A stretch of 64,000 bases of DNA, from contig LCLX01000003.1 in assembly GCA_001002285.1 (NCBI GenBank), forward strand, positions 76,915-140,914. Reading direction: 5' to 3'. Below the pieces are notes generated by a model, which saw only the letters and a list, made by a program, of their open reading frames with translations, made no database searches and was not told where the DNA came from. Source of the stretch: Microgenomates group bacterium GW2011_GWC1_46_15. GTDB lineage: Bacteria; Patescibacteriota; Microgenomatia; UBA1400; UBA12028. Shown here piece by piece: positions 7,320-45,599 of this stretch. Position numbers and translations under genes: made by a program. Each line of letters starts with the position of its first letter. Positions within the stretch are counted from its first letter, which is position 1.

Positions 7320-7323
7320 AGAT

Positions 7324-12633: not shown

Positions 12634-12640
12634 GGGGACA

Positions 12641-27011: not shown

Positions 27012-27017
27012 AAAAAC

Positions 27018-29147
27018 ATGAGCGATACAACAGTCCTGCCACCACTCACTCCGCAAACACCATCAACGCCACAGGTGCCGCAGATGACTCCTGCGTCAAC
27101 GCCACTCATGCCAACACCGCCCGCCGAGGTGTTCGGTGATGATATAAAAAGTGATATACCCTCAATAAAACCATCGTCGGTAACGCCACTTGTTTCCACT
27201 CAACCACCGGTATCAACCCCACCACTCACCAAGCCCGCTGATACACACACTTCACTCGATCAAGCACTCGCCGACCTCGAAAAAGAAGCGATGAAGCTTG
27301 CAGGAGATGAAGGAAAACAAACAAAAGAAGTTCAACCAAAGATTGCTGAATCAAAATCTGTAGAGAAGCCAGTTGAAAAAATTGGTGAAAAACTTGCTGA
27401 GCCTGCGCCGATGAAACAAGAGCTTCCCTCACTATCTAATGATTTAGAAAAGCCTTTTGTTGTTACTCCAAAAACAGACACGCTTCCACCATTGCCCCCC
27501 ACTTCTCCCGTCATTAAACCCATGATTCAGCTTGCTGAAAAACCAGCGGTAAAACCAGTAGCTCCTGTTACGCCAGGCGCCGGAATGGAAACACTCAAAG
27601 CGCACACATCATCCACAACATCCGTGTTTGATACCAAAATGGAAAGTGTAGAAGAGAAACCAACCGTTACTCCCCCTGTTACTTCTCAGCCAGTAGAAAA
27701 AGGAAAGAAGAAGGAAAAAGATACTACTGTGGAAAGTAGTGCGGATAGTGGTTCTGGAAAAAAGAAAAAAGGATTCGTAAAGAAAATTGTTGCTGCCGCG
27801 GCGCTAGCGGTACTCGTGATTGGGTTAGGTGTTGGTATTTTTGTTGCACAACAATCGCAGGATGTGAGACAACAAGCTGCTTCTGGCTGCATTATTGTAA
27901 ATGGCGGAACAAAAGATGCTGGTATTTGGTGTGCTAATGGTGATTGGATAAAACACTGTGGGGATGCTGTTAATGTTCCATCAGATGAAGCTATGAAGGC
28001 TTGTGAAGACAAAGTGAATGAGTTAAATGGTGTTACAGAACCAGTACCCCCCACTAATGACCAATCCTCAACTACAACTAGATGTACCGCCAAGGATGGT
28101 TCTCTCGGAGAAACGTGTGGGGACTTAAGCAAGTGCGATATCGCTGGAGGATGTAACCCTGCTTGTGGAAGTGGCACAAGAGATGGAAAAATTTGCGACA
28201 TACCAAACGGGTACTGTACATCAGGTTATTCTTGTCGTCCTGGGAGCAATTCTGTCAATGTGAAAAAATGTGATGGGAATCAATGTGTTAATTCATGGTG
28301 TGATACGGCAGATGTTGGTACAGATAGATGTAAAACATGTTCAAGTAACTCAGAGTGTACCGTAGATAATAGTAGTCTCCCCACATGTGCAACCGGTCTT
28401 GACTGTAACCTCCCAGGAGACCGATTTCCAACGGGAGCCATAAGTTGCGCGAGTCCCGTTAGTGGAAAGACAATGTCTTGTTGTCCCGCTGGATATAAAA
28501 GAAATAGTCTAGATCCTACAACAAATTACTGTGTCCCCAGTACAAGCGGGAATTCCTGTCCCAACGATTCTTCAAAACAAATTGCAAAATGCTATAAGTT
28601 TGTGTGTCCAAATGGATGCGAACTCAATAAGGATGACCCTAATGGTGTTGAAGCCTGGAGATGTAGCACTTCTACTCCTGGTGTACAAATCCAGGAACTT
28701 TCCGGAGCTGCTTGTCTTTCTGCTTCTCTTAATGGACAGTGCGGTCAAATCGACATGATTGATACCCAAGGAAACTATTGCGGATATACTGCCTCAGGGT
28801 ATAACTGTGGTGGAAGCTGCCAAGGTAACACACCCCCCTTATCCAACCCTCCCGACGAATCCCCTCCTCCAACAAACCCACCGGGTGCTCCCATGTGCCA
28901 GGGAATTGCGAAAGACATAACCGCGCCCAAAGCCGGTGACCAAGTTGCGTTCACGTGTACCCAATCCACCGACGCAACCCGGTACGAGTTCCGATACAGG
29001 GTCGGCAGTGGCGCGTTTACCGCGCTCGATCCGCTCAACGCAACCGCGAGAACATCCAAATCACTTACTGTACAAGACGGCACGTATGATGTGCAATGTC
29101 GCCCATGTACTAACAACACATGTGCAAGTTGGAGCACTGCAAACTAA
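27018..29147 (+). CDS. Type II membrane protein: about 250 aa Pro/Lys/Glu-rich disordered N-terminus, single TM, Cys-rich ectodomain
   Basis: Low-complexity PTPP/KPVEK repeats. KKKKGFVKK basic patch before the TM (AAAALAVLVIGLGVGIFV). About 60 Cys in the C-terminal 430 aa. Confidence 0.55.
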   Translation: MSDTTVLPPLTPQTPSTPQVPQMTPASTPLMPTPPAEVFGDDIKSDIPSIKPSSVTPLVSTQPPVSTPPLTKPADTHTSLDQALADLEKEAMKLAGDEGKQTKEVQPKIAESKSVEKPVEKIGEKLAEPAPMKQELPSLSNDLEKPFVVTPKTDTLPPLPPTSPVIKPMIQLAEKPAVKPVAPVTPGAGMETLKAHTSSTTSVFDTKMESVEEKPTVTPPVTSQPVEKGKKKEKDTTVESSADSGSGKKKKGFVKKIVAAAALAVLVIGLGVGIFVAQQSQDVRQQAASGCIIVNGGTKDAGIWCANGDWIKHCGDAVNVPSDEAMKACEDKVNELNGVTEPVPPTNDQSSTTTRCTAKDGSLGETCGDLSKCDIAGGCNPACGSGTRDGKICDIPNGYCTSGYSCRPGSNSVNVKKCDGNQCVNSWCDTADVGTDRCKTCSSNSECTVDNSSLPTCATGLDCNLPGDRFPTGAISCASPVSGKTMSCCPAGYKRNSLDPTTNYCVPSTSGNSCPNDSSKQIAKCYKFVCPNGCELNKDDPNGVEAWRCSTSTPGVQIQELSGAACLSASLNGQCGQIDMIDTQGNYCGYTASGYNCGGSCQGNTPPLSNPPDESPPPTNPPGAPMCQGIAKDITAPKAGDQVAFTCTQSTDATRYEFRYRVGSGAFTALDPLNATARTSKSLTVQDGTYDVQCRPCTNNTCASWSTAN

Positions 29148-29162
29148 CAAAAAGATAACACT

Positions 29163-30422
29163 ATGACATTAAAACCAAAAACACGGGCGCTTCTTTTGAT
29201 TGCAGGATCGCTGTTGACTGTGATTCTTGTCGTTGCGACCGTGATTATTTCTCTGCGGTTGAAAAATCAAGGCAGCCGATCGGTAACCCCAACAACACCG
29301 GAATCAAAACCTTCCGCGGATGTTACCGCGTCATGCGCGCTTACGTTTACAGTGGGAACGCAACTTATTCAATGTGATGTTCCAACTATATACAAAAATG
29401 ATTCTCGGAATAGTTCTGGAATATATTTTACTTCTCCTAATGACATTATTGACCCAACAAAAACAAATTTTTCTCCTGGACAAATAATAGTTCTTAAGCT
29501 TCCCATAAAAAATGAAGAAGATGATTTGGAGTATCCAACTGCCGCATGGACTGATGTATTAAGTACACAGCTAACATTTGTTGACGGTGGTAGTGGATGT
29601 ACATACGAACAATCTAATCGTACTGTCACATGCCACACCGGAAATATGCTTTCTTCTTTTATGAGCTGGTTTCGTGTCCGTATAAATGATAGTGCAACTG
29701 GAAAAATAACAAATACTGCAACTATTACCCCGGGAGGATCCGACCCAAGTTCCTGTAGTGTTGAAATTACCATTAGTAGTGCCCCCACCCCGACGCCCAC
29801 TCCAACGCTTGACGCCGGTTTCCTCGTCCAAAAATTCAATGATAAAAATAATAATAAGGCGCGCGATAGCGGTGAAGCAGGTTTGGATTGGGACTTCGAG
29901 TGGAAACTCAATGGCGATAACAACTTCCGCGCGTATCAAACGTATGTCGACAAAAACGGTGAAGGTGGTCGCGTTGGTGGGCTGAAAGACGGTGACAAAG
30001 TCCACATCCGCGAAAAAAGTAAGAGTGGTTGGAGCGCGACAAACGGCACCGAGCAAACATTTACCGTCAAACTTGGTGAAACATATGTTGCATATTTTGG
30101 AAACCGCCAACCAACAACGGTTGGGTGCAACAATAGCTGTTCTGCAGATACTGATTGTGCCTCCGGACTCTTCTGTTCCAAAGCAACTGGCTCCACAAGT
30201 GGCGTGTGCCGCAACAATGCGTGTGTAAACAAAACAAACTGTACGTGTGATGTTGTTACCTCAACCTCAACACCAACAACGATCGTAAAAGCTTCTCCTA
30301 CTCCGACTTCAGTGCCCGAAGCGCCTCTGCCAGAAGCAGGTTCAACCGGTCAATCAATACTGTTATTCCTCGGCGGAACCACGATGACGGTTCTTGGAGT
30401 TATTGGACTGCTTGCGCTGTAG
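29163..30422 (+). CDS. Secreted/surface protein with a C-terminal LPEAGSTGQ + TM segment
   Basis: N-terminal signal-anchor. TPTPTPT linker and a Cys-rich knot. C-terminus PLPEAGSTGQSILLFLGGTTMTVLGVIGLLAL. Confidence 0.55.
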   Translation: MTLKPKTRALLLIAGSLLTVILVVATVIISLRLKNQGSRSVTPTTPESKPSADVTASCALTFTVGTQLIQCDVPTIYKNDSRNSSGIYFTSPNDIIDPTKTNFSPGQIIVLKLPIKNEEDDLEYPTAAWTDVLSTQLTFVDGGSGCTYEQSNRTVTCHTGNMLSSFMSWFRVRINDSATGKITNTATITPGGSDPSSCSVEITISSAPTPTPTPTLDAGFLVQKFNDKNNNKARDSGEAGLDWDFEWKLNGDNNFRAYQTYVDKNGEGGRVGGLKDGDKVHIREKSKSGWSATNGTEQTFTVKLGETYVAYFGNRQPTTVGCNNSCSADTDCASGLFCSKATGSTSGVCRNNACVNKTNCTCDVVTSTSTPTTIVKASPTPTSVPEAPLPEAGSTGQSILLFLGGTTMTVLGVIGLLAL

Positions 30423-30911: not shown

Positions 30912-31193
30912 ATGAATAAAAAAATTCGTACACAAAATATTATTAAAGTCGGGAATAGCCTCGCCGTTACATTGGATAAAGCCTTTGTTGACGCCTACAA
31001 ATTAAAAGCAAAACAGCAGGTTTACATACTTTATACTCAGTATCCCCCGCGAATTATTGTGAAACCCGATTTTTCTCAAGGACCATCACTCACTCAGTCC
31101 GATATAGAAAAATTGCCAAAAGAGTTCCGTAATTGGGTGAAAAAATTCCTCAAGGAAGATCACGAAGCTCTTAAGGCTTTAACACATCTATAG
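30912..31193 (+). CDS. AbrB/MazE-like swapped-hairpin DNA-binding protein (putative)
   Basis: IKVGNSLAVTLDKAFVD motif resembles AbrB/SpoVT-type domains. 93 aa. Confidence 0.4.
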   Translation: MNKKIRTQNIIKVGNSLAVTLDKAFVDAYKLKAKQQVYILYTQYPPRIIVKPDFSQGPSLTQSDIEKLPKEFRNWVKKFLKEDHEALKALTHL

Positions 31194-33521
31194 TTTCGCC
31201 CGCACCGTAATTTCCGCCTCAACAATCTCCTTGTGCTTTCCGTACTTCAACAGTGACAACTCCTTAATCATCTCCGCAACTTTGGGGTTCTTCATTGCAT
31301 TTTCTTTCGTCATATCTCGAGTCAAATCCATACTAAATGCTGGCACCGGTTCATTATTCACAATTGTCTTGGTATATACATGGAATCGCTCAATATTGGT
31401 CAAATCGCTCTCATTAAACACTGGAGCAAACTCGTGTTGCAAAAAGTTTGCGTCCGGCACACCAATGCGGAAACTAATCAATGTACCGACGTTGCCAAAC
31501 ACCGCGTTCTTTACGTCTTCCTCGATCTGCGCGACAAACTGGTTTGCCACGATGAGGTTCAATTTGTACTTGCGGGCTTCGGACAAAATTGTCGCAAAAT
31601 CTTGTGTTGCAAAGTTTTGGAACTCATCAACATAGAGATAAAAGTCGCGGCGTTGCTCGAGCGGAACGTTAACACGCGACATAGCGGCTGCCAAAATCTT
31701 TGGCACCATAATCAAGCCCAAAAACTTGGCATCTTCTTCTCCAAGCGCACCTTTGGACAAGTTCACGAGTAAAATCTTGCCCTCATCCATCACTTCGCGT
31801 AGATTAAACGCGGACTTGCTCTGGCCGATAATGTTGCGCATTGTTTTGTTCGTGATAAACCGGCCAAACTTGGACACGATGTAGTCAAGCACCTCCGACT
31901 TATGGAAGTCGCTTGTTTGGGCAATTTGGTCGGTCCAGTACCGGCGCACAACGGGGTCTTTCACTTTTGGCAGTAAATCCTGCAAGAACTTGCTGTCCGT
32001 CAGCACGCGCACCAACTCAATAAACGTGCTTCCCGGCTCGGCCATGATCGTGAGCATAGCGTTGCGGATCGCGTGTTCAAACCGCGGGCCAATGATACCG
32101 GTTTTGTGTGGATCGTAGAGTTTGTACATCAGCCCAATAATCGAGCCAGCCACAAAGTGCATCTGTTCTTCGGTTTCTGCTTCCATCATGTTCAAACCCA
32201 TAGGACGGTCGGTGTTTGACGGGTTAAAGTAAATAACATCCTCCGCGCGCTCGGGCGGCATGAGCAAGAGTAAATCCTCAACGAGGTCGCCGTGCGGATC
32301 AATCACCGCCATACCTTTGCCCGCGCGGATATCCTGCAATACCATGTCTTTCAAAAACTCAGACTTCCCGGCGCCGGTTTTACCAACAATGTACATGTGG
32401 CGCTGGCGGTCTTTTTCGGCAATATAAATATTGCGTGAGGAACCGCGGTACACACTGCGCCCCAAGAACAGGCCGGAGGTCGGGATTTCGGAAGGAGCCG
32501 GCGCGTTTTTCGCTTTGAGCCAATAAATATGGTGCGTTTCAACCGTTTTGTTCGGGAAGTGGATCATCGTCGCTAACTCTTCGCTGTTGAACACCGTAAC
32601 GCCCCGGCCAAACAACGGCATGTACCGGTAAATGAAGTCAATCATGAAGAGATGTTTGAACCAAATACGGGTCTTTTTGAGATGATTGTGCGCAGACGAG
32701 TACTGCGCGAACGACCCCACAATGTTTGTGAGGTGCGAGTTTGCCGCCATCGCGCTGGTTGAAGAAACAACGATGCGGATTGCAGTTCGGAAACCGGATT
32801 TGCCAAGTTTCGTGTCGATAGAGTCCAAAGACTTGGGATCGTGTGTATAGCTCGCCTTCTCGGGATCTGCTTCTTTTTTCTTTGTTGAAGCAAGGTAACT
32901 TGCACCACGTCTCTGCCATCCTTCACCCGCGGGCTGGAGAACATACTGCACAATCGCCCCCTCCCCCTGCTGCATCTTGGAAAGCGCCGATGTTAACAGC
33001 GATAATCCGTCGGTTGGCAACTCTTTAAATGTTTTAATCGGGAAAAACTCAGACTCTTTGAGTGTGAGCGCAGCAAACGCGACTTTGCCTCCCTCGCTGA
33101 AAATATTTGGTTCATCAACTTCATTGATTTCCGCGCCCGGATATGCCCCATTGATCTGTTTTTCAATCAAGTCGCGCAAGTTCCGCGGACAGGTAAAGTA
33201 AAACTTGATTTCATCGTGAAGCGCGATCACTTCGAACGCGAAGTGGTCTTCGGCGTGGAGAAAATGGAAAAATCCTGATTTCTTTAACGAGTGAAGCGAG
33301 GCAAACATCTGTTCAGCCGCGTCAATTTTAATTTCGTTGTCTTTTGGAAGCGCGACCAACAAATGAATGAACTGCAGACTGTACTCCTCACGGTCGCGGT
33401 GCTTCCACCACTGGATAAATGCATACACAAACGCCGCGAAAAGCGCCACACTCAGCACAAGCACTACTACCGTACTCAATAATGCGGTCATCCGAACGAC
33501 AAAAAGATCAAGTTGATTCAT
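31188..33521 (-). CDS. Membrane-anchored P-loop ATPase of the HerA/FtsK/VirD4 (T4CP-like, DUF87-like) superfamily
   Basis: N-terminal TM. Walker A IVGKTGAGKS followed by VIDPHGDL. Walker B LYVDEFQNF. 777 aa. Confidence 0.55.
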   Translation of the reverse strand: MNQLDLFVVRMTALLSTVVVLVLSVALFAAFVYAFIQWWKHRDREEYSLQFIHLLVALPKDNEIKIDAAEQMFASLHSLKKSGFFHFLHAEDHFAFEVIALHDEIKFYFTCPRNLRDLIEKQINGAYPGAEINEVDEPNIFSEGGKVAFAALTLKESEFFPIKTFKELPTDGLSLLTSALSKMQQGEGAIVQYVLQPAGEGWQRRGASYLASTKKKEADPEKASYTHDPKSLDSIDTKLGKSGFRTAIRIVVSSTSAMAANSHLTNIVGSFAQYSSAHNHLKKTRIWFKHLFMIDFIYRYMPLFGRGVTVFNSEELATMIHFPNKTVETHHIYWLKAKNAPAPSEIPTSGLFLGRSVYRGSSRNIYIAEKDRQRHMYIVGKTGAGKSEFLKDMVLQDIRAGKGMAVIDPHGDLVEDLLLLMPPERAEDVIYFNPSNTDRPMGLNMMEAETEEQMHFVAGSIIGLMYKLYDPHKTGIIGPRFEHAIRNAMLTIMAEPGSTFIELVRVLTDSKFLQDLLPKVKDPVVRRYWTDQIAQTSDFHKSEVLDYIVSKFGRFITNKTMRNIIGQSKSAFNLREVMDEGKILLVNLSKGALGEEDAKFLGLIMVPKILAAAMSRVNVPLEQRRDFYLYVDEFQNFATQDFATILSEARKYKLNLIVANQFVAQIEEDVKNAVFGNVGTLISFRIGVPDANFLQHEFAPVFNESDLTNIERFHVYTKTIVNNEPVPAFSMDLTRDMTKENAMKNPKVAEMIKELSLLKYGKHKEIVEAEITVRAKL

Positions 33522-33533
33522 ATGTTTCTATAT

Positions 33534-34052
33534 CTACGCGATTCTCCGGTACACCACCATTCCTTTAAACTTTTTCATCACACGGATACACCACTCCGCA
33601 AGCCACCGTACGCTGTCTGTCACGCTTTTTGTGACACCCGTTTGGATACCGGATTGCGTGAGCGGGAGCACAATGACCGGCTGCGCCGCGTAGTCTCCCG
33701 TTGGCATGGTTGCCGTTTTGTCTGCCACCACCACTTGTTTTGGCGCGGTAATCTCGTGCGACTCCACTTTTTCCATCCACGTTTCAAGCTCTGGCGGAAG
33801 TTCTGCTGATCTTTCCGATTCAACAATCTGAGCCCCGGGGACTTCCTTTACTAATGTGTCAAGACCGCCCGTCGCGGTGCGTTCTTTTGTACCACTCGTT
33901 TTCCCGCTTACTGCTCCAAGAGGGTTTAATGGGTCAGTTGTTGCGGTTGACTGCAGTACGGCGTTCGCCAAACTGTCGTCTTGCACAATAGCTTGAGGTG
34001 TTTGCGGTGGTGCCTGTGATGTTTGTGGTTGATTCTGGGCAGAGTCCGGCAT
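33534..34052 (-). CDS. Hypothetical protein, low complexity (Gln/Thr/Pro-rich)
   Basis: ORF only. Lies between the cobO-like gene and the T4CP-like gene on the same strand. Confidence 0.3.
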   Translation of the reverse strand: MPDSAQNQPQTSQAPPQTPQAIVQDDSLANAVLQSTATTDPLNPLGAVSGKTSGTKERTATGGLDTLVKEVPGAQIVESERSAELPPELETWMEKVESHEITAPKQVVVADKTATMPTGDYAAQPVIVLPLTQSGIQTGVTKSVTDSVRWLAEWCIRVMKKFKGMVVYRRIA

Positions 34053-34064
34053 GGAATCACTATA

Positions 34065-34652
34065 TCAGAAATCGAGTCCCTTGACAGCGAGTTTTCCCGC
34101 GTCAAAAGGATGTTTTTCTTTCTGAATCACACTCACGAGATCCGCAACTTTCTTTAAGCCAGCCGAGGCATTCCGGCCGGTCAATACAACGTGCGTTTTC
34201 CCTCGCTGTTTAAGCAGTTCCAATACATCGCTTTCCTTTAGTAATTTATCGTGGACCGCGTTGCACACTTCATCAAGAAATAAAACATCAATATGTTGAA
34301 GAAGAAGCGCGCGGACTTTCTCCAGCGCCTCGTGGGCAGCACGACGGTGCTGGGCTGGCGTATCATCATCAACAATCACACTTGATTGTGCGCGGACGGT
34401 TCTAACCGCTCCATGTTGCTGGACTGACCTCAGATAAAATCCCTTGCCCATCGGGAAGAAAAGGAGCCGTTTTTTTGCCGAAGTATTCAGAATTTCGCTA
34501 AGGTGGTGCTCGTTAATCCCCCACCGCTTTTCTTTGTACCAACTCACCCATCCCACACTCCATCCATTGGTTAGCGCGCGCAAAAGCATTCCAAGCGCCG
34601 CGCTCGTTTTTCCTTTGCCATCACCCGTAAATATGTAGATTAAACCGGACAT
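34065..34652 (-). CDS. cobO: Cob(I)yrinic acid a,c-diamide / cob(I)alamin adenosyltransferase (CobA/CobO/BtuR family)
   Basis: P-loop IFTGDGKGKTSAALGMLLRA matches the CobA GNGKGKTTAA signature. About 195 aa. Confidence 0.75.
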   Translation of the reverse strand: MSGLIYIFTGDGKGKTSAALGMLLRALTNGWSVGWVSWYKEKRWGINEHHLSEILNTSAKKRLLFFPMGKGFYLRSVQQHGAVRTVRAQSSVIVDDDTPAQHRRAAHEALEKVRALLLQHIDVLFLDEVCNAVHDKLLKESDVLELLKQRGKTHVVLTGRNASAGLKKVADLVSVIQKEKHPFDAGKLAVKGLDF

Positions 34653-34703
34653 ATCACACACTCCGTGGTAGAAATGAGAATGCGACGCCATTGTATGCCG
34701 AAG

Positions 34704-36299
34704 TTATTGCGCGAACAAGCCTCGGAAGACTCTGTAGTACCAGGGAGTCTGCTGGCTTCCTCCTGGAATCGTTCTTGGAACAGGAATGTACCGTATTGGG
34801 TTATACCAGGGTAACGGAGTGGGTGTTGTGACTTGCTTTGTTGTTGGTTTTGATGTTGGTTTCGGTGTCGCACACACTCCGCTGTATGAAACTTTTACTC
34901 CGTTTTGTTCTGCCGTACACGCATTGCTATATGTTCTGCCGTCCGCACCACATACAGGCATGTATTCCTGCGAACATACTCCATTTGTTAATGGTGTGGA
35001 AATCGGTGTTGCGTATGGGTACGGTGTGGCATAAGGGTACGGAGTCGCGTACGGAGGATATGGCGTAGTGTATGGGTACGGTGTGGCATATGGAGGGTAT
35101 GGCGTAGCGTATGGATATGGAGTGGTGTATGGATAAGGTGTTGATAACGGCGGAGGTGTTACAAGAATCGGCGTTGCATACGGACGGGAAGTTGCATACG
35201 GATATGGTGTGACTGGTGGACGAGGAGAAGGACACATAAGTACCGGCTCGCAAGGAGCTTTTATACACGTAACCTGTGCGTAGTAACATCCACTCGATGT
35301 GGGAGTAGCTTTTGATGTTGGAAGAGGGCTCGATATTGGAGTAGGCATTGGGGTAGATTGCGGAGTCGCTCTTGGTGTTGAAATCGGAGTAGCGGATGTT
35401 GTTAACTTCGACAAATCAACCTCAACGACCGTACTAGGGAGAATACCCATCACTTTTTGGCTGACTATTTTTGTACTCATTCTCACTGGAGGAGCTTGAG
35501 TTTTTGGAACCGCGGCAAGATCTGAGGCGGCGTATACCATAACGAGAGGCAATCGGGTGTGCAACGCCACCTGAACAGCCGCATCTTTAGCATTCTTTAC
35601 ACGCCCTTTGAGTGTTACCACATTTTTTACCACTGTTATCCCGTCAAAAGCAAAGAAATCGTACAACGCCCCCTTTGTCATAACAAAACCACTCCCCTTG
35701 TAGACCACGGACTCTGTTGATGGAGGTGATGAGGGTGGAGTCGTTCGTTGTTGCGAAGATGGTGTTTTTCCGTCTTCAACAGCTACCGCTGCGTATACCG
35801 GTTGGACTACACTTATTGGTTTTGTCGTTTCTATCGAGATACTTGCCTCAACGGAAGTAATCGTGATGTTTTTGTTTAGCTGAGACGCCTCCATATACAG
35901 AGCTTGTCCGGTCCCGTATTGGGGAGATGGCTTCTCTGCTTCCGTTATTTCTATTTTTGCGGATTGATCTGCGCTTGCTTGTGATCGATTATCAGTGGGA
36001 ACTTGTAGAAGATCCAGTCCGACAATACCACCAGAAATAATAATGGCCGCGGTTATACCCCCAATCAGATAATTTTTTATAATGTTTGAAGATGGACCAG
36101 TGGTTTTTGGTTGAGGTTCCGGAGTGGGTTCTATAACGGGTTCAACTGGTTGGATTGGTGCTATTTCTGGGGCTGGCGATACTACTGGTGGAGCAGGAAT
36201 TGAAGCATCAACGGGAGACAAAGAGCTCTCGGGTACTAGATGTTGTGGGCTGGAGTTTGGATCTACGGGCACTTGCCCGGAGAGTACTGGATCGTCCAT
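34704..36299 (-). CDS. Type II membrane/surface protein with Pro-rich N-terminus, PYPYATP tandem repeats and a C-terminal Kazal-type domain
   Basis: TM GGITAAIIISGGIVGL after a Pro-rich N-terminus. Repeats (A/T)TPYP(P)Y x about 9. C-terminal CSQEYMPVCGADGRTYSNACTAEQNGVKVSYSGVC fits the Kazal consensus PVCG[SA]DGxTYxNxC...C. Confidence 0.6.
   Translation of the reverse strand: MDDPVLSGQVPVDPNSSPQHLVPESSLSPVDASIPAPPVVSPAPEIAPIQPVEPVIEPTPEPQPKTTGPSSNIIKNYLIGGITAAIIISGGIVGLDLLQVPTDNRSQASADQSAKIEITEAEKPSPQYGTGQALYMEASQLNKNITITSVEASISIETTKPISVVQPVYAAVAVEDGKTPSSQQRTTPPSSPPSTESVVYKGSGFVMTKGALYDFFAFDGITVVKNVVTLKGRVKNAKDAAVQVALHTRLPLVMVYAASDLAAVPKTQAPPVRMSTKIVSQKVMGILPSTVVEVDLSKLTTSATPISTPRATPQSTPMPTPISSPLPTSKATPTSSGCYYAQVTCIKAPCEPVLMCPSPRPPVTPYPYATSRPYATPILVTPPPLSTPYPYTTPYPYATPYPPYATPYPYTTPYPPYATPYPYATPYPYATPISTPLTNGVCSQEYMPVCGADGRTYSNACTAEQNGVKVSYSGVCATPKPTSKPTTKQVTTPTPLPWYNPIRYIPVPRTIPGGSQQTPWYYRVFRGLFAQ
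35000..35260. repeat. Coding tandem repeat (about 24-27 nt units, Tyr/Pro-rich) within the 34704-36299 gene
   Basis: Repeated tatgggtacggtgtggcata / tatggcgtagYgtatgg units are visible in the nucleotide sequence. Confidence 0.7.
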
Positions 36300-36400: not shown

Positions 36401-37030
36401 TTATTGACGATATCCCGTCTTTTCGAACACACTCTCCTCTATATTTACATCAACTTGCACACCAAGATCTTCCAGCATATCGCGCACAGTCATAATGGGA
36501 AAACCAACCACATTCATCGCGCTCCCCCGAACCCCTTCAACAAAGTCTTTTGCCGTCCCCTGCAGGGCATATCCACCAGCCTTGTCATACGGTTCACTAG
36601 TGGCAATGTATTTCTCGAGCGTAGTATTGGAAAAACGTGTAAACGTCACATCGCTCCGCACAACTTCCGTCCGCTTCTCCCCCGTTTCACCATCGTGCAT
36701 CACAACCGCAGTAAAGACCTGATGTGTTCTTCCTCTCAGGGTTGAAAGCATAACACGTGCGTCATCCAAGTTTTTTGGTTTTCCATATGCTTTACCATCC
36801 AAAAAAACAGTGGTGTCCGCACCAATGACGATTGCATCGGGGTGGCGTTTTTCAACGGTTAACACTTTCCCTAAAGCGATCGTTGAAACGTAGTCTTCCG
36901 GATCATCAAAGTCTGAAAACCGCACCGATTCCTCTGGAAAATCGCTGACATCAATCTCAAAAGGAATGCCGAGCCACTTTAGAATTTCCTGCCGGCGGAA
37001 CGAGCTGGAAGCAAGTACAAGATGTTTCAT
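36401..37030 (-). CDS. maf: Maf-like nucleoside triphosphate pyrophosphatase / septum formation protein
   Basis: LVLASSSFRRQEIL N-terminal Maf signature. Start at MKHLVLASSS. Confidence 0.8.
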   Translation of the reverse strand: MKHLVLASSSFRRQEILKWLGIPFEIDVSDFPEESVRFSDFDDPEDYVSTIALGKVLTVEKRHPDAIVIGADTTVFLDGKAYGKPKNLDDARVMLSTLRGRTHQVFTAVVMHDGETGEKRTEVVRSDVTFTRFSNTTLEKYIATSEPYDKAGGYALQGTAKDFVEGVRGSAMNVVGFPIMTVRDMLEDLGVQVDVNIEESVFEKTGYRQ

Positions 37031-37090
37031 CATTTGGTATATTTTGGTATACTTTGGTGTGTTCAGTATTGTATATGAAAGGAGTGATGT

Positions 37091-37645
37091 ATGACAATTT
37101 CTTTTAAACATTCTCTTGCTATTTCCACCATTGTTGTCTTCTTGTCTTTGGGAGTATCATCCGCCCTTGCTACAGAAAATGCTTCCCCAAGTCCAAAAAC
37201 ACGCATCAGAGAAAAGGCTGAGGAGAGACTAGAAAAACAGCAAGAAAAAAGAGAAGAAATTTCTGATCGGAAATCAGTCAATTTGGAAAAGCACTGTACC
37301 GCAATTCAGTCCGGTTTTACAAACATTATCTCAAGAATAAACAGTAGAATTGAAAAACAAAAAGCAGAAGGACGGGATGCCACAATCGCTTCTCAACATG
37401 TTGCGTCCGCTCAAACAGCGCTTGACTCCGCGGTTTCACTCTGCAAACAATCGGTTGCAAAGTTTGACTCTGTTCCTGCTAACAGTTGGGCAACACAAAA
37501 AAGCATTATTCAAGAAGCCCGCTTACTTGCAAAACAGGCACACGATCAGTTTGTGGCCGCGCGGAAAAGCGTTGTTGCAGCAATTCGTGCGCTCAACACA
37601 ACGCGTAAAGATAACAAGACAAACACAACGGAAGGAGAAAAATGA
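37091..37645 (+). CDS. Hypothetical secreted coiled-coil protein
   Basis: Signal peptide then a charged helical sequence. No motif. Confidence 0.35.
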   Translation: MTISFKHSLAISTIVVFLSLGVSSALATENASPSPKTRIREKAEERLEKQQEKREEISDRKSVNLEKHCTAIQSGFTNIISRINSRIEKQKAEGRDATIASQHVASAQTALDSAVSLCKQSVAKFDSVPANSWATQKSIIQEARLLAKQAHDQFVAARKSVVAAIRALNTTRKDNKTNTTEGEK

Positions 37646-37907: not shown

Positions 37908-40244
37908 TTAGAGTTTGCACTTGCTGTACCCACACTGTAGGCAGAGATTGCACCCCTCTTGATTTTGCATGAGCGCGCCGCACTCCGGACACTTTTCTCC
38001 TTCTTCGGGAATATCAAAAACATCTTCACGCAGTACTTCTTGCTTTGTGAGCGTGGAAAAATCCTTTCGCTGCGCAAGCGGTGTAACTCGGTGCTGACTC
38101 TGCATAATTTGATGTGATTTTTTTGGCGTTGAAGCCTCTGCTGGTGAAGGTGCCGCTTGGGTTTGGTGCTGAACAGAAAGAACCTGTGTTGCCTTCGATG
38201 TATCGCGGTACACCGTAATACCTTTGCACCCCAATTTCCAGGCGAGTAGGTAGGCGCCGCGGACATCCTCAAGCGTTGCGTTGGCGGGAAAGTTAATTGT
38301 TTTACTCACCGCATTATCGGTATGATCTTGAAACGCCGCCTGCATGCGCACGTGCCACTGCCAATCAATATCATGCGAGGTAACAAATACGCGTTTGAGC
38401 TCGGATGAAACGATTGTGCTGTGCTGTACTCCACCGGTTTGTGTTACTTCAGCAACAATCGCATTGAACTCACCATTACTCCCGACATGTTCTTTCAACG
38501 CTCGCTCAAAATATTTATTAATGTATGTGAGGCCAGCGGTGTCAACAACATTCTTTACGTAACTCAGCGCAAAAATCGGCTCGATGCCACTGCTACAGTC
38601 CGCCGCCATTGAAATTGTTCCCGTTGGTGCAATTGTTGTAATTGCGACGTTGCGGAACTTGCGCGGTTTCTTTTTGTGTCCATAGGTATGTGTAACCGGA
38701 TCATATCCTTTGGCAAACCAACTGTTTTTCCATTGTGGAAACGCGCCTTTTTCTTTTGCCAATTTTTCCGAAGCGCTCCACGATGATTCTTGTACGTGTT
38801 TCATGATTTTCTTTGCTAAAGCAACGCCTTCATCGGAGTTATATGGAATGTTGAGTTGAAGCAGAAGGTCGGCCCAACCCATTACACCCAACCCAATCCG
38901 CCGGTGTTGGTGCACGGTTTTTGTGATTTGCGGAAGAGGGTATGTGCACGCGTCAATCACGTTGTCTAACATACGAGTCGCGATCGCGGTAACAGTGGCT
39001 AAACGGTCCCAGTTTATGGTGGTGTGACCTGTTTTTTCGTCTTTTAGTGCAAATGCAGAAAGATTGATTGATCCGAGGTTACACGAATCAAATGAGTGCA
39101 AAGGTTGTTCGCCACAGGGATTAGTCGCATAAATCGGCCCAACAGAGTCTAACAATGGGTTGTTGCGGTTGATCACATCCCAGTAAATCATCCCAGGATC
39201 CCCCGTTCTCCACGCAAGCGATATGATCTGATCCATCAACATACGCGCCAAAATATTTTGGACTGGTTTGTTGGTACGCGGATTCACGAGTGCAAACTCT
39301 TTATCTTTTTCCACAGCACGCATAAACGCATCCGTTGTCCCAACCGAAATGTTGAAGTTGCTAATCTCCCCCTCTTCACTCTTGCACGTAATGAACTCCA
39401 AAATGTCCGGGTGATGAACGGTTAAAATACCCATGTTGGCACCGCGTTGTTTCCCACCCTGCATAACTTGGCGCGTTGCAATGTCAAACACTTTCATGAA
39501 TGAAACCGGGCCTGTAGCAAAACCGCCGGAAGATTTTGTAATCCCATCGCCTTTGGGGCGTAAGCGTGAAAAATCAAAACCCGTCCCACCACCTTTTTGA
39601 TGCACAAGTGCCGTCCACTTCACCGCATCAAAAATACCTTCCATACTGTCTTCAACTGGAAGGACAAAGCAACTTGCAAGCTGATTTTGTGGTGTTCCCG
39701 CGTTATTGAGTGTACGACCACCAGGCAGAAATTCAAATTTTGTCATGACGTCATAAAATTTTTCTTCCCAGATTTTCTTGTGCTTTTTTTCTACAGTGGC
39801 AAGTGTGTGGGCAACACGGCGGAACATTTGGCCGGGAGTTTCCATCGGCTTTCCATCCTGATCGTGAACAAGATACCGCCGTTCAATGACTTTGAGCTGA
39901 TTGATATTGAGATTGAGATCATTCTCTACTCCAATAACGGTCTCCGCTTTGCGGATTTTGGCATGTTCAGCGCGATACAAAATGTATGCTTTTGCGGTCT
40001 TAAAATGGCCAGCGGCCATGAGCACTTGCTCAACCGTATCCTGCACTTGTTCAACGGTAACCAGTTCTTTGCGGACAACAATCACTTTTTCGATAATGCC
40101 CGCGGCGATTCCCGCTAACCGTTGTGCTTCTTTGTCATCAAACTCGCCCGTTGCAATTGCTGCTTTGTGAAGCGCCAACGCGATTTTAACTTTTTCAAAC
40201 GGCATTTCGCGCCCATCGCGCTTAACGATTGTCATGGAGCTCAC
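37908..40244 (-). CDS. nrdJ: Class II (adenosylcobalamin-dependent) ribonucleotide reductase, paralog 1
   Basis: ATP-cone-like N-terminus. Radical-site loop TNPCGEQPL. C-terminal CxxC...CxxC zinc ribbon (CPECG...CLQCGYSKC). Confidence 0.85.
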   Translation of the reverse strand: MSSMTIVKRDGREMPFEKVKIALALHKAAIATGEFDDKEAQRLAGIAAGIIEKVIVVRKELVTVEQVQDTVEQVLMAAGHFKTAKAYILYRAEHAKIRKAETVIGVENDLNLNINQLKVIERRYLVHDQDGKPMETPGQMFRRVAHTLATVEKKHKKIWEEKFYDVMTKFEFLPGGRTLNNAGTPQNQLASCFVLPVEDSMEGIFDAVKWTALVHQKGGGTGFDFSRLRPKGDGITKSSGGFATGPVSFMKVFDIATRQVMQGGKQRGANMGILTVHHPDILEFITCKSEEGEISNFNISVGTTDAFMRAVEKDKEFALVNPRTNKPVQNILARMLMDQIISLAWRTGDPGMIYWDVINRNNPLLDSVGPIYATNPCGEQPLHSFDSCNLGSINLSAFALKDEKTGHTTINWDRLATVTAIATRMLDNVIDACTYPLPQITKTVHQHRRIGLGVMGWADLLLQLNIPYNSDEGVALAKKIMKHVQESSWSASEKLAKEKGAFPQWKNSWFAKGYDPVTHTYGHKKKPRKFRNVAITTIAPTGTISMAADCSSGIEPIFALSYVKNVVDTAGLTYINKYFERALKEHVGSNGEFNAIVAEVTQTGGVQHSTIVSSELKRVFVTSHDIDWQWHVRMQAAFQDHTDNAVSKTINFPANATLEDVRGAYLLAWKLGCKGITVYRDTSKATQVLSVQHQTQAAPSPAEASTPKKSHQIMQSQHRVTPLAQRKDFSTLTKQEVLREDVFDIPEEGEKCPECGALMQNQEGCNLCLQCGYSKCKL

Positions 40245-41256: not shown

Positions 41257-43500
41257 CTACATCGTGCACTTACTCCACCCGCAGTCCGGACAGCTTACAC
41301 ACCCACTTTCAAACTTCAATGAGGCAGAGGCACACTCGGGGCAGATTTGTTTTTCTCCTGATGCTGGCTTCGTTGTATGTGTGTGTATATCCGAACGCAT
41401 TGTGGCATCCTTTGAGAGTTTGCTTTCCTTCCCCGCTACATTGAGCACTTGATCCATTTTACTGCCGTCGCGGTAGATCGTAATGCCTTTAAGCCCAAGT
41501 TTCCATCCAAGCATGTACGCTTTCTTCACGTCTTCAACCGTTGCGTTGTGTGGAAAGTTGATCGTTTTACTTACTGAGTTATCAATCCACTTTTGCCACA
41601 CCGCTTGAATTTTGACGTGCCACTCGGGAGAAATATTGTGCGTGGTTGCAAATACACGCTTCGCTTCTTTGCTTAATTCTTTGACATGTTCTACGCCACC
41701 GTCCTGTAAAACTTGCTGCATAATGCGGTTACGTGTGACTTCATCAAAATTTTGCTGAAGATACTCACCAAACACTGGATCGGCGATGGTAAATTCCCGA
41801 GTCGGTGCGTTTGCATGATTATCCTCATTAAAACTGCGGCGCACTTGGACAAGTGAAAATACCGGCTCAATACCAGAACTTGTATTTGCTAACAACGAAA
41901 TTGTTCCCGTTGGGGCAACCATCATCACCGCACAGTTGCGATATCGTTCAGAAGTTCCAGCATACACCGAAACATCAAAATTGGGGAATGGGCCACGAAT
42001 TTTTCCAAGCTCCAGTGAAGCCTCTTCTGCTTTCTTCCGGATGAATTTTGCGAGATGGTCAGCAACGCGCACAGCTTCTTCACTGTTATATGGAACCCTC
42101 ATTCGATATAGTATGTGCGCAAAACCCATCACTCCTAAACCGATACGTCGGTTTCCGTCTTTCACCATCTGCCTGATTTCATCCAACGCATACGTGTTCA
42201 CTTCAATCATGTCATCCAAGAAACGGACACCAAGCTTGACCGATTTTTCGAGATCGTCCCAATCAATTTCCCAATCGCCTTTTTTGTTTTTGACAAGGTG
42301 GCGGTTGAGATCGATTGATGTTAGATTACACGATTCATAGGGCAATAATCCAATTTCTCCACAGGGATTCGTTGCATCCATAATCCCAATTGACGGGGTT
42401 GGATTGTCTTCCTGAAGACGGTCTAAAAACGCCAAACCCGGATCGCCGGTGGCCCACGCGTGTTCTGCAATCAGCTCAAAAATCTCCCTTGCCTTTATGG
42501 TCTTCCACACTTCGCCATTGCGGGGATTAAGTAAATCCCATTCTTTGTTTGCCTGCACGGCCTCCATGAACTTGTTGGACACTCCAACCGAAATATTGAA
42601 GTTTTTAATCGTGCCATCCTGATCTTTCAGTGTAATGAAATCAACAATATCGGGATGATCTGCATTCAAAATCGCGATGTTTGCCCCTTGCCGCTTTGCT
42701 CCCTGTAAAATTTGAGCAAGCGCGGCAGAAAATGCTCTCAAAAAGTCTACCGGCCCGGATGCTGCTTTCGGAATATTTTTGACTTTGTCTCCGTGCGGTC
42801 GGATTCTCGAAAAATTAAATCCTGTTCCGCCATTGTTTTTATGCACAACCGCGGCATCACCAAGTGTTTTAAAAATCTTTTGGATACTGTCTTCTATCGG
42901 CAGAACGAAACAACTGGATAACTGACCTGTTCCTCCGGGATTTCCCGCTTCAAACATCGCTTTGCCCGCGCACACAAACTTTAAGTTCGCCATGCGCTCG
43001 TAGAACTTCCTGGCTGTTTCATCAACAATACCGTTCTCCCCCCACTGAATTTCTGCCTTCGCCATGTGGCGGGCAACACGCCACAACATTTCGCCCGGTG
43101 TTTCAACAACTTTCCCGTTCATGTCGGTGCGGAGGTAGCGTTTTTTTGCAATTTCGTGCGCGGTATCGGTTAAATTCGGCTCAGTAATAGCAAGTTTTTT
43201 GTGTTTCTGTTGTTTTTTCTCACCGTACAAAATGTAGTACTTCGCGGTTGCAAAGTATCCCGCTTCGGCAATGGTTGGCTCAACAATGTCGCGGATTTGT
43301 TGAACGGTAAGCGTGTTTTCTTTTACTACCGCACGCGCGAGTTTCACTTGAACTTTTTTTGTGATTTCAGTAGCAATTTTTTTATCGTACTCCCCCGTAT
43401 CTTTTCCAGCAGCCTCAATAGACGCGGTGATCTTCTCCAGAGTAAAAGGCTTCTTTGTGCCATCCCGTTTGATGACAAACTGTATTGATGACGTTTGCAT
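41257..43500 (-). CDS. nrdJ: Class II (adenosylcobalamin-dependent) ribonucleotide reductase, paralog 2
   Basis: TNPCGEIGLLPYESCNL radical loop. ATP-cone-like N-terminus. C-terminal Zn ribbon. Confidence 0.85.
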   Translation of the reverse strand: MQTSSIQFVIKRDGTKKPFTLEKITASIEAAGKDTGEYDKKIATEITKKVQVKLARAVVKENTLTVQQIRDIVEPTIAEAGYFATAKYYILYGEKKQQKHKKLAITEPNLTDTAHEIAKKRYLRTDMNGKVVETPGEMLWRVARHMAKAEIQWGENGIVDETARKFYERMANLKFVCAGKAMFEAGNPGGTGQLSSCFVLPIEDSIQKIFKTLGDAAVVHKNNGGTGFNFSRIRPHGDKVKNIPKAASGPVDFLRAFSAALAQILQGAKRQGANIAILNADHPDIVDFITLKDQDGTIKNFNISVGVSNKFMEAVQANKEWDLLNPRNGEVWKTIKAREIFELIAEHAWATGDPGLAFLDRLQEDNPTPSIGIMDATNPCGEIGLLPYESCNLTSIDLNRHLVKNKKGDWEIDWDDLEKSVKLGVRFLDDMIEVNTYALDEIRQMVKDGNRRIGLGVMGFAHILYRMRVPYNSEEAVRVADHLAKFIRKKAEEASLELGKIRGPFPNFDVSVYAGTSERYRNCAVMMVAPTGTISLLANTSSGIEPVFSLVQVRRSFNEDNHANAPTREFTIADPVFGEYLQQNFDEVTRNRIMQQVLQDGGVEHVKELSKEAKRVFATTHNISPEWHVKIQAVWQKWIDNSVSKTINFPHNATVEDVKKAYMLGWKLGLKGITIYRDGSKMDQVLNVAGKESKLSKDATMRSDIHTHTTKPASGEKQICPECASASLKFESGCVSCPDCGWSKCTM

Positions 43501-43520: not shown

Positions 43521-45599
43521 CTACACACTACATTTGCTATACGCACAATTGGGACACGTGAAACACCCTTCTTGAATAACAAGCGTTGTTCCACATTCCG
43601 GACACGCTTCTTCACCCGGCGCTACTTTAACCAACGGTGCGCCCACAAACGCTTCATTAGCAAATGTTTTTCCTTCTTTCTCGCGCTTCTTCTTTGTCTC
43701 ACCCGTTTCCAACACAACCTTATTACGGCTCCCCGTCACATACACTGTCATTCCCTTGAGTCCAAGCTTCCAGCCTTTGAAGTACGCCTTCCACACTTCC
43801 TCTTCTGTGGCATCGGCAGAAAAGTTAATCGTTTTTGAGATCGCGTTGTCTACAAACCGCTGGAGCGCTGCTTCCATTTCAACGTGTTCATCAACCGGCA
43901 CATCGCCCGAAACCACATACACATTGCGGATCTCTTTTGGCACCTCGTCTATGTCTTGACATGTCCCATGCTGCCGGACTTTTTCAAAAATATTCTCTTG
44001 CTGAGATTGACTCACGCCCGCGCGTTCGAGCGCCTCTTTAAATAATCCACTTTCGTAGTACAACTCACGGAAGTCCTGTCCAATTTTTTCCGCACCCTCG
44101 TGTGTGCGCATCACATAACTCAACGCAAACGCCGGCTCGCATCCATATCCTTCCAGACCGGAAATTGTTGCGATGGCACCCGTTGGTTGGATTGTGTTTT
44201 GGCAACTATTCCGTACGCCAATTTTTCTAATATCGGCCTCTAGTGATTTCCAGTCCAACTTTGGCATGTTAAATCTATGTTTGTACGGGTACAAAGACTT
44301 TGGGGGGCTCCACACTTCAATGTTTTTCGTTTTTAATACCGCAGCGTTCTGTGGACTGTAATCATATCTACTCCCTTTGATTCCAGGAAACGCGCCGCGC
44401 TCCTGCGCGAGTTGATTCGACGCGCGCAACGTATGGTACCGGATAAACTCCATGATCTGTCCCGCACAATCAATGCCTTTTCTGCTCCCATACCGCGTAC
44501 CGATTTTGTACAACACATCCGCCAAACCCATAATGGATACGCCAATGCGCCGGTTGTGTTTCGCAGCCTCTTCTAATTGAGGAACAGCCGATACATATTT
44601 ATTCGTATCTACAACGTCATCAAGCCACCGCACCGTCCATTCAACCGTTTCGCGGAGTTTTTCCCAATCAACGCTATATGCAAAAATACCTTTTTTCCCG
44701 TTTTTCACGTGTTCCGCCAAGTTAATCGAGGCCATACAGCAGTTTTCGAAAGGCAATAAAAATTGTTCGCCGCATGGGTTTGTCGCTTCCAAATCTCCCT
44801 GCGCCGGCGTTGGATTTTCTCGGTTTGCGGCATCCAAAAACAACACTCCTGGTTCGCCGTTGTGATGCGCGAACTTTACAATTTCTACAAACAACTCCCG
44901 CGCTTTTACTTTTTTCCATACTCCGCCATTTCGTGGATTAATCAACGGAAAATCTGTATTTTTCTCTACCGCGCGCATGAATGCATCGGTAATACCAACC
45001 GAGATATTAAAGTGTTCAATCACGCCTTCTTTTTCTTTGCAGTGAATAAAATCGTAAATATCCGGATGATGGACCGGTAAAACTGCCATACACGCCGACC
45101 GCCTTCCTCCACCCTGCCCAATCACCCAAAACGCGGTGTCATATACTTTCAAAAATGAAACTACGCCCGTTGCTTTGCCCTTGGACGAACCAATTGAGTC
45201 CCCCTTAGGACGGATCCGGCCAAATGAAAATCCTACTCCTCCGCCGGACTGTAAAATCAAAACGGCATTGCGTAGCGTGCTAAAAATCCCATCCTGAGCA
45301 CGGCCCATATCATCATCAATCGGGAGAACGAAACAGTTCGCGAGCTGGCCCCACCCAGTTCCCGCGTTGGCCAGTGTGCGGCCGTTGGGCATAAACCGGA
45401 ACTCACTCAACAACGACACAAACATCTTCTCGACTTTTTCTGGAGTCGTTCCATCGCGGTACGCGTGTTCTGCCTGCGCGACAACGTGGGCACACCGCGC
45501 CAAGATGTCTTCAACTTTTTCCGTTGGCTTGCCGGAGTCATCCCGCAGGGCATACCTGTTGATCATGACTTCTTGCGCGTTTGGTGTTAGTTTTTTCAT
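43521..45599 (-). CDS. nrdJ: Class II (adenosylcobalamin-dependent) ribonucleotide reductase, paralog 3
   Basis: TNPCGEQFLLPFENCCMASINL radical loop. C-terminal CPECG...CPNCAYSKC Zn ribbon. Confidence 0.85.
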   Translation of the reverse strand: MKKLTPNAQEVMINRYALRDDSGKPTEKVEDILARCAHVVAQAEHAYRDGTTPEKVEKMFVSLLSEFRFMPNGRTLANAGTGWGQLANCFVLPIDDDMGRAQDGIFSTLRNAVLILQSGGGVGFSFGRIRPKGDSIGSSKGKATGVVSFLKVYDTAFWVIGQGGGRRSACMAVLPVHHPDIYDFIHCKEKEGVIEHFNISVGITDAFMRAVEKNTDFPLINPRNGGVWKKVKARELFVEIVKFAHHNGEPGVLFLDAANRENPTPAQGDLEATNPCGEQFLLPFENCCMASINLAEHVKNGKKGIFAYSVDWEKLRETVEWTVRWLDDVVDTNKYVSAVPQLEEAAKHNRRIGVSIMGLADVLYKIGTRYGSRKGIDCAGQIMEFIRYHTLRASNQLAQERGAFPGIKGSRYDYSPQNAAVLKTKNIEVWSPPKSLYPYKHRFNMPKLDWKSLEADIRKIGVRNSCQNTIQPTGAIATISGLEGYGCEPAFALSYVMRTHEGAEKIGQDFRELYYESGLFKEALERAGVSQSQQENIFEKVRQHGTCQDIDEVPKEIRNVYVVSGDVPVDEHVEMEAALQRFVDNAISKTINFSADATEEEVWKAYFKGWKLGLKGMTVYVTGSRNKVVLETGETKKKREKEGKTFANEAFVGAPLVKVAPGEEACPECGTTLVIQEGCFTCPNCAYSKCSV

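Follow-up and report, generated by a model that had tools for sequence, protein, structure and literature searches.

Does an ultra-small bacterium carry on its surface a protease inhibitor that protects it from the proteases of other organisms? This question is raised by a 531-residue protein encoded in a stretch of 64,000 nucleotides of contig LCLX01000003.1 from Microgenomates group bacterium GW2011_GWC1_46_15 (hereafter the window, meaning the whole stretch of DNA that was analysed). The organism is a groundwater ultra-small bacterium of the Candidate Phyla Radiation (CPR; Candidatus Pacebacteria / Microgenomates), and NCBI gives the neighbouring proteins as those of Candidatus Pacebacteria, Paceibacterota or a Microgenomates group bacterium. 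The survival of CPR bacteria on or near other microbes is largely unexplained, and of that interaction an inhibitor of proteases held at the surface would form a concrete and testable part. The protein contains a true Kazal domain close to its C-terminus, and the reading that we favour, with rather more confidence than doubt, is that of a type II anchored surface protein which presents a canonical serine-protease inhibitor and shields the cell surface from foreign proteases. The gene and its Kazal domain are located as follows.

34704..36299, minus strand: whole gene, 531 codons plus stop, with candidate starts at codon 1 (ATG), codon 10 (GTG) and codon 27 (TTG)

34866..34985, minus strand: Kazal domain, aa 439-478, with two predicted disulfides, C442-C461 and C450-C476

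Pfam assigned aa 439-476 both to Kazal_1 (E=2.3e-7, 31.1 bits for a cut-off of 21) and to Kazal_2 (E=1.6e-5, 25.4 bits for a cut-off of 22.8); NCBIfam holds no model for the Kazal domain. A phmmer search of the PDB returned Kazal domains only, with the leech-derived tryptase inhibitor (LDTI), RECK and the Galleria silk inhibitor GmSPI-2 at the top, each at E~1e-6. AlphaFold2 (AF2), which was given an alignment of 29 Kazal proteins from a profile search, modelled aa ~441-480 with a predicted local distance difference test score (pLDDT) of 93-98, placing strands at 449-451 and 470-473 and a helix at 460-465, and the predicted structure displays the beta-hairpin, the central alpha-helix and the C-terminal strand of the Kazal fold. 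The top 50 matches found by Foldseek in the PDB were all of the Kazal or follistatin type, the best ones showing an rmsd (root mean square deviation) of 0.9-1.6 Å and a template modelling (TM) score, normalised to the target, of 0.8-0.9. Among them were GmSPI-2 (TM 0.84, rmsd 1.6 Å), LDTI (rmsd 0.9 Å), ovomucoid third domains (OMTKY3), infestin and SPINK1. With both Pfam models above their cut-offs and AF2 and Foldseek in agreement, aa 439-478 are a true Kazal domain (Pfam PF00050/PF07648; MEROPS I1), as a preliminary description of this DNA had proposed. That description had also taken the last 40 residues of the protein for the domain, but C476 closes the domain and 53-55 more residues come after it.

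The domain possesses four cysteines only, C442, C450, C461 and C476, which correspond to C2, C3, C4 and C6 of the family, while C1 and C5, which bridge each other in the classical Kazal scheme, are both absent. The lack of a six-cysteine framework excludes the classical subtype but not the Kazal family. Regarding the pairing C1-C5, C2-C4 and C3-C6 that had been put forward, the last two bridges can be mapped on the domain and C1-C5 is missing as a pair, as it is in GmSPI-2. Neither outcome that was to refute the Kazal assignment, a lack of significant HMM matches or cysteines at odds with the fold, has therefore come about. Indeed, the two sequences align over 37 residues without any gap, all four cysteines coincide and their spacing (8/11/15) is identical. 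GmSPI-2, an inhibitor of 36 residues, has four cysteines, the bridges Cys5-Cys24 and Cys13-Cys39 and a high activity against both subtilisin and proteinase K, and CrSPI-1-D1 of the horseshoe crab is another active Kazal inhibitor with two disulfides (PMC4169406). Given the homology with the GmSPI-2 framework, bridges C442-C461 and C450-C476 are predicted, and on this basis the domain would fall into the non-classical two-disulfide Kazal subgroup represented by these two inhibitors. GmSPI-2 shares with the domain the four-cysteine, two-disulfide framework and is its best Foldseek match. It differs in being a free insect peptide with Thr at P1, whereas the domain studied here is a module of a 531-aa anchored protein and has Gln at P1. 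LDTI (1an1, 1ldt, 2kmo) is the best match in sequence, shows 46-49% identity in structural alignments and has the backbone nearest to that of the domain, but it has six cysteines, with a non-classical C1/C5 placement, and a basic P1 aimed at trypsin-like enzymes.

The putative reactive loop reads C442(P3)-S443(P2)-Q444(P1)-E445(P1')-Y446(P2')-M447(P3')-P-V-C450, with seven residues between C2 and C3. Its sequence CSQEYMPVCG resembles CTLEYRPLCG...TYGNKC of OMTKY3, the turkey ovomucoid third domain, and Asn459 is the equivalent of the Asn33 that braces the loop in OMTKY3. The motif of a canonical reactive loop and its bracing Asn are thus both in place. Gln at P1 can bind a protease, since the Gln18-OMTKY3 variant was crystallised in complex with SGPB (2sgq). 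Because Gln occupies P1 within an ovomucoid-like Thr/Ser-x-Glu-Tyr context, the targets would resemble subtilisin or chymotrypsin/elastase rather than trypsin, a target class that is likely in view of what is established on the relation between structure and function in Kazal inhibitors. The domain would then act as a standard-mechanism tight-binding inhibitor, in which a serine protease with a neutral S1 pocket, from the subtilisin (S8) or the chymotrypsin (S1) clan, would have its active site filled by the loop C-S-Q444|E-Y-M, and the loop would be kept rigid by the two predicted bridges and Asn459.

The occurrence of such domains in prokaryotes was examined with a single, narrow motif, PVCG[CAT][DN][GN][KRN]TY, back-translated from a bacterial-type Kazal profile, which was scanned in one genome for each of 185,579 prokaryotic species. 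At least 599 matches were obtained, of which at least 586 were confirmed by tblastn. Kazal domains had been described beforehand as rare in bacteria; this is overstated, as with such a number of loci they are uncommon but not exceptional. The taxonomy and the domain statistics given below rest on the best 80 of the at least 586 confirmed loci, in which 102 domains were counted. CPR are represented among these 80 loci by Giovannonibacteria, Saccharibacteria, Uhrbacteria, Paceibacterota and Peribacteria, and the DPANN archaea (Diapherotrites, Parvarchaeota, Aenigmarchaeota, Nanoarchaeota and Nanohaloarchaeota) by Micrarchaeota and Ainarchaeum, so that the survey of CPR that had been suggested did find Kazal domains in several CPR and DPANN lineages. 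Bacterium HR35 is also present, which has the CPR-typical DUF5667 yet is unclassified in NCBI, together with Bacteroidota, Caulobacterales, Nitrosomonadaceae, Myxococcota and Woeseiaceae. Among the best 13 matches, eight belong to CPR, DPANN or unclassified archaeal metagenome-assembled genomes (MAGs), or nine if HR35 is counted as CPR, a proportion which is suggestive only given that the ranking favours sequences similar to the query.

In the 102 domains, P3 is Cys in 97, P2 is Thr in 70, P2' is Tyr or Phe in 93 and the equivalent of Asn33 is found in 101, while P1 is varied (Met and Gln 21 each, Arg 18, Ala 12 and Lys 9). Such a combination, a scaffold that is fixed and a P1 that varies, is what one would expect if these domains were functional canonical inhibitors. 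The bare four-cysteine form of the query is shared by all six CPR domains and by four of the five DPANN domains, whereas in other bacteria an extra cysteine ('PVCGC') is found in 77 of 91 domains. Gln stands at P1 in four of the six CPR domains as well as in the query. The small Kazal proteins and lipoproteins of Bacteroidota, Caulobacterales, Nitrosomonadaceae, Myxococcota and Woeseiaceae have in common with the query the core motif C-T-x-E-Y-x-PVCG-x-DG-x-TY-x-N-x-C. They differ from it by their size, many having 70-290 aa and some more than 1,000 aa, by the lipoprotein-like signal peptides that many of them carry and, in most cases, by the extra cysteine, which implies a different third bridge.

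Five CPR or CPR-like genomes (loci L018, L022, L023, L026 and L028) and one 'archaeon' MAG (L021) encode a protein of 390-820 aa in which the Kazal domain stands late and is preceded by DUF5667. These proteins start with a hydrophobic stretch that is regarded as a signal peptide and continue with DUF5667, a helical region and a four-cysteine Kazal domain, after which a cupredoxin/plastocyanin-like domain is found in two of them (L018 and L022). No description of this DUF5667-Kazal architecture was found in the literature searched. Its carriers, from Giovannonibacteria (MFHO01000032.1), Saccharibacteria (CAYIPF010000014.1), Uhrbacteria, Paceibacterota, HR35 and the 'archaeon' MAG, belong to the same four-cysteine subtype as the query, with 53-65% identity over the domain, frequently have Gln at P1 and are, like the query, large exported proteins made by ultra-small organisms, with the domain in a late position. 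They differ from the query by the signal-peptide-like N-terminus, by DUF5667 and, for some, by the cupredoxin end, none of which the query possesses. Indeed, no match to DUF5667 was obtained in the query even at E<=10, which leaves it outside the DUF5667-Kazal family with only the Kazal module in common. Local phmmer and blastp comparisons showed no similarity between the query outside its Kazal domain and the other carriers, and no neighbour gene is common to the query locus and 11 CPR/DPANN Kazal loci. Furthermore, the Peribacteria carrier combines two Kazal domains with an SLH wall-anchor domain and one Micrarchaeia carrier ends in a C-terminal transmembrane helix; with these and the DUF5667 carriers, surface tethering of Kazal domains recurs in the CPR/DPANN lineages.

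These likenesses may be pushed further. A minimal four-cysteine 'PVCG[A/T]DG' Kazal domain, often with Gln at P1, could be common to CPR and DPANN, possibly exchanged horizontally, and set on unrelated surface proteins, as a countermeasure typical of these lineages, against subtilisin-like proteases that their hosts secrete or hold at the surface, but we regard this as improbable. If true, tethered protease inhibition would be a general need of the episymbiotic lifestyle, and the query protein would count among its carriers as one specific to its lineage; as an idea, a shared CPR/DPANN anti-protease module of the surface tied to episymbiosis is weakly supported. No report connecting Kazal domains to CPR, to DPANN or to surface proteins of bacteria came up in our search of the literature. 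An analogous case is provided by a 2026 study, in which pacifastin-like inhibitor domains were observed in genomes grouped as Myxobacteria and CPR (PMC13388995).

Three further observations concern the distribution of DUF5667 and Kazal sequences. A 186-aa protein of the window (46316-46876, minus strand) has a borderline match to DUF5667 (26.7 bits for a cut-off of 27) and is devoid of a Kazal domain. An ATP-dependent DNA ligase of the archaeal/eukaryotic type (10900-12798, minus strand) shows 30% identity over 504 aa to a gene located on the 'archaeon' contig with DUF5667-Kazal (L021 1-1437). The DNA motif of the Kazal core (CGxDGxTYxNxC) is also present in 12 viral contigs of IMG/VR (L006-L017), including giant-virus MAGs (GVMAG).

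How the domain could be presented to the outside depends on the remainder of the protein, the parts of which are given below.

36072..36299, minus strand: Pro-rich acidic N-terminal segment, aa 1-76, with 19 Pro, 9 acidic and 2 basic residues, disordered in AF2 and presumably cytoplasmic

36003..36071, minus strand: single transmembrane helix, aa 77-99, YLIGGITAAIIISGGIVGLDLLQ, with Kyte-Doolittle 19-residue means of 1.7-2.0 that are reached nowhere else in the protein

35400..36002, minus strand: beta-rich middle region, aa 100-300, with no detectable relatives and an AF2 pLDDT <50

35295..35399, minus strand: Thr/Pro/Ser-rich linker, aa 301-335, TSATPISTPRATPQSTPMPTPISSPLPTSKATPTS, disordered in AF2

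35232..35288, minus strand: second cysteine cluster, aa 338-356, C-x6-C-x4-C-x5-C, GCYYAQVTCIKAPCEPVLMCP, without a family match

35007..35210, minus strand: Pro/Tyr stalk, aa 364-431, with eight TPYP(P)Y[A/T] units

34707..34865, minus strand: C-terminal tail, aa 479-531, a Thr/Pro/Lys linker followed by the basic aromatic end PWYNPIRY...PWYYRVFRGLFAQ

The hydrophobic helix is at least 50 aa away from every candidate start (codons 1, 10 and 27) and, since this is too far from any start codon for a cleavable signal peptide, it is a membrane anchor. A type II topology (N-in, C-out) is suggested by two Lys located just before the helix, by the need of Cys-rich domains for an oxidising compartment and by three proteins encoded in the window.

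510-1451, minus strand: DsbA-like thioredoxin

5320-6096, minus strand: DsbD_2/SfLAP-like membrane protein

6558-7346, minus strand: Lgt

All three belong to the equipment with which disulfides are formed and lipoproteins matured outside the cytoplasm, and they bear on how the Kazal domain would fold. The preliminary description had spoken of an N-in transmembrane anchor with a Pro-rich tail: the helix and the 76-aa segment with its 19 Pro were both recovered, and the N-in orientation is the probable one. With such a topology, display of the Kazal domain at the surface can reasonably be assumed.

In the stalk, an exact TPYP(P)Y[A/T] unit at aa 364-370 precedes seven more that adjoin each other at aa 387-431, which makes eight, and a degenerate TSRPYA unit is also present, in line with the nine or so Tyr/Pro repeats counted earlier. 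At the DNA level, Tandem Repeats Finder reported a repeat at 35004-35141 with a period of 18 and 7.3 copies, of which only 69% of positions match, and units that agree in peptide sequence make use of different synonymous codons. Since the codons differ, the repeat is an old one, kept by selection at the protein level, and not the result of recent slippage or an assembly artefact. Together, the Thr/Pro linker and the Tyr/Pro repeats probably form ~135 residues of extended chain, which, if polyproline-like, would have a length of the order of 30-40 nm. The second cluster (C338, C345, C350 and C356), absent from the earlier account, was considered as a degenerate half-Kazal or follistatin N-subdomain, and this was rejected as Pfam gives a single Kazal stretch and nothing else there. 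The tail is strongly basic, with 7 basic and no acidic residues over aa 479-531 (net +7), contains two PWY motifs and has no hydrophobic helix. Outside the Kazal domain, the full-length AF2 model has a pLDDT <50, and the middle region modelled alone reached a mean pLDDT of 34.

No relative of these parts emerged. The middle region (aa 100-300) has no match in Pfam or NCBIfam, and an exhaustive phmmer search with aa 110-300 against 1.84 billion representatives gave three matches only, which were rejected as spurious, since all are highly repetitive proteins, either giant or Cys-rich, and 5-15 weak repeats add up to each score. When 8-mers of this region were compared with the JGI metagenomes, at least 600 pattern matches were obtained with no relative among the matches listed, where true ones may be crowded out by chance matches. 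A second metagenome scan, with the DNA pattern of the Kazal core, found 30 loci of which none has this architecture, the source organism itself being absent. Word-indexed homologue searches with the full protein and with aa 437-531 returned nothing, not even the protein itself, and are weak negatives. The large protein collection that was searched does not contain the exact sequence of the query, so very close relatives might be missed too. On plasmids, tblastn gave two weak matches only, both without annotation. A six-frame scan of the other fetched loci showed nothing similar to the four-cysteine cluster, the Pro/Tyr repeat or the Trp/Tyr tail, and neither the window nor the fetched loci contain another tail-like sequence. 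Hence, among the searches made, the N-terminal segment, the transmembrane helix, the middle region, the four-cysteine cluster, the repeats and the tail are all without a match elsewhere.

Under the reading that we favour, the protein would display outside the membrane, in this order, the beta-rich region, a stalk of ~135 residues broken by a small four-cysteine knot, the two-disulfide Kazal domain and a short basic aromatic tail. The inhibitor, being tethered, would act at the cell's own surface, where it would protect structures against the proteases that neighbour or host microbes secrete. Inhibition at the cell surface is argued for by the conserved scaffold of the loop, by the variable P1, by the activity of GmSPI-2 with the same framework and by the recurrent tethering in CPR/DPANN carriers. 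Protection from the proteases of a host or a neighbour is plausible. EPI1 and EPI10 of Phytophthora inactivate the tomato subtilase P69B, and bacterial ecotin protects against exogenous proteases (PMC9904509). In each of these cases an extracellular or periplasmic inhibitor neutralises the serine proteases of another organism, which is the logic proposed here; these inhibitors, however, are soluble and untethered, and ecotin has an unrelated fold (MEROPS I11).

Several points weigh against a protective inhibitor. We found in the literature no biochemical evidence for any prokaryotic Kazal domain. No protease gene was detected among the window proteins scanned with Pfam, and the context indicates no partner; the neighbourhood of the Kazal gene, with Maf, a CobO-like protein, a 172-aa protein and a VirD4/TrwB-like ATPase, gives no hint on function either. 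No orthologue with the whole architecture was found in the protein and metagenome searches. The charges that flank the helix (+2/-2 before it, +2/-3 after it) show a weak asymmetry. Finally, many eukaryotic Kazal-like domains, such as those of agrin, follistatin and RECK, are binding modules and not inhibitors, and domain 2 of RECK has the same C1/C5-less pattern as the query.

The foreign protease is the first element of this reading that could be replaced. The tethered Kazal domain might instead control one or more exported serine proteases of the bacterium itself, such as S8 subtilases or enzymes of the HtrA type, kept inactive at the surface of the producer until release or activation. Such self-control, as exerted by SPINK1 on trypsin, is the commonest role of animal Kazal inhibitors, and the inhibitory features of the domain suit it just as well as they suit a shield. 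The absence of a protease gene, both adjoining and among the window proteins scanned, counts against it, however, as does the fact that the Kazal loci of other CPR genomes have no neighbour genes in common with the query; we consider it possible but unlikely. A step further from inhibition, the domain could be a non-inhibitory unit of binding or adhesion, as in agrin, follistatin, SPARC and RECK, which together with the basic Trp/Tyr tail would attach the cell to a host or a surface. The four-cysteine pattern shared with RECK domain 2, the location of the domain near the tip of a stalk of ~135 residues and the aromatic tail of +7, suited to anionic surfaces, are all consistent with attachment, and two reports describe cultivated CPR bacteria as living attached to hosts (PMC11665869, PMC11623550). 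The closest structural matches, however, are true inhibitors. Moreover, the motif of the reactive loop and the equivalent of Asn33 are kept in the query and in its prokaryotic homologues, and these are the very elements that non-inhibitory Kazal-like domains usually let drift. Adhesion is for us a slightly less likely alternative than self-control.

The gene itself was also examined. The open reading frame (ORF) of 531 aa at 34704-36299 (minus strand) shows no interruption. The exact protein is present in 26 blocks of public assemblies, including GCA_003524785.1 (DQGK01000004.1) and several groundwater metagenome assemblies, and at least 23 contigs of differing sample origin encode an identical protein, the DNA differences seen being synonymous only. 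The DNA of the gene is identical in four other contigs or assemblies, and a fifth has two synonymous changes at third positions. Because the sequence is identical in contigs of several samples, with differences that are only synonymous, the gene is real. In the sister assembly GCA_003525295.1 (DQEY01000013.1) the annotation gives two fragments of 105 and 325 aa, but a split gene or pseudogene was ruled out: an 'NN' scaffold gap (locus L099 2193-2194) replaces 136 bp (aa 102-147) and there is no frameshift. A deletion variant in a 2-kb public contig was ruled out as well, as a gene-calling artefact in which an antisense ORF of 82 aa (34786-35034, plus strand; L102 48-296) was called as a gene. 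This ORF lies inside the Tyr/Pro repeat and Kazal region and is an artefact of the reverse-complement frame of the repeat. That the sequence would not be a true bacterial gene but eukaryotic contamination, a repeat mis-assembly or a chance ORF is effectively refuted, since against a G+C content at third codon positions of 0.37, below that of the neighbours (0.44-0.60), and the gene split in one sister assembly, now traced to the scaffold gap, stand the recurrence of this sequence, within an unchanged order of bacterial genes, across independent assemblies and samples, the repeat units that differ by synonymous codons and the homologous domains in many CPR genomes.

As to what is new, the Kazal family, its two-disulfide subtype and the presence of Kazal domains in prokaryotes are already known or visible via Pfam; the architecture of the carrier is specific to its lineage. 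The domain has ~40 residues, is easily made and offers a clear assay, and as far as the literature shows this one would be the first prokaryotic Kazal domain to enter biochemistry. Standard Pfam annotation already gives the assignment, and many prokaryotes carry the domain. The advance is therefore incremental, except if a specific target in a host should come to light.

With regard to the locus, the Kazal gene belongs to a string of co-oriented genes, which comprises Maf (36401-37111) and, after the Kazal gene, a CobA/CobO/BtuR-type adenosyltransferase (34065-34691), a 172-aa protein (33534-34052) and the VirD4/TrwB-like ATPase (31188-33521), which also carries DUF8128. Between the Kazal gene, the CobO-like gene, the gene of the 172-aa protein and the VirD4-like gene, the spacers are of exactly 12 nt at each of the three junctions (31188-34703, minus strand), and no obvious Shine-Dalgarno motif is seen in these three spacers. 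A scan for promoters and terminators at the locus gave the same counts as shuffled sequences.

Elsewhere in the window, three genes for the large subunit of ribonucleotide reductase follow each other in a row (37908-40244, 41257-43500 and 43521-45599, minus strand); one has an ATP-cone, and the product of 37908-40244 ends in a Cys-rich, zinc-ribbon-like tail (CPECG...CLQCG). Their proximity to the CobO-type corrinoid adenosyltransferase hints at B12-dependent class II enzymes. Facing the VirD4-like gene, the region 25602-30422 (plus strand) encodes three large, probably exported proteins, one of 469 aa with fn3, purple-acid-phosphatase-N and Big_13 domains, one of 709 aa without a family match and one of 419 aa with a weak DUF11 match, and this block may be a cluster related to the surface or to secretion. 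The window also encodes a Fic-domain protein (13389-14513), a GH18 (chitinase-like) protein (50419-51753) between two class A penicillin-binding proteins (48186-50558 and 51865-54255) and a XerC/phage-type integrase (61664-62581).

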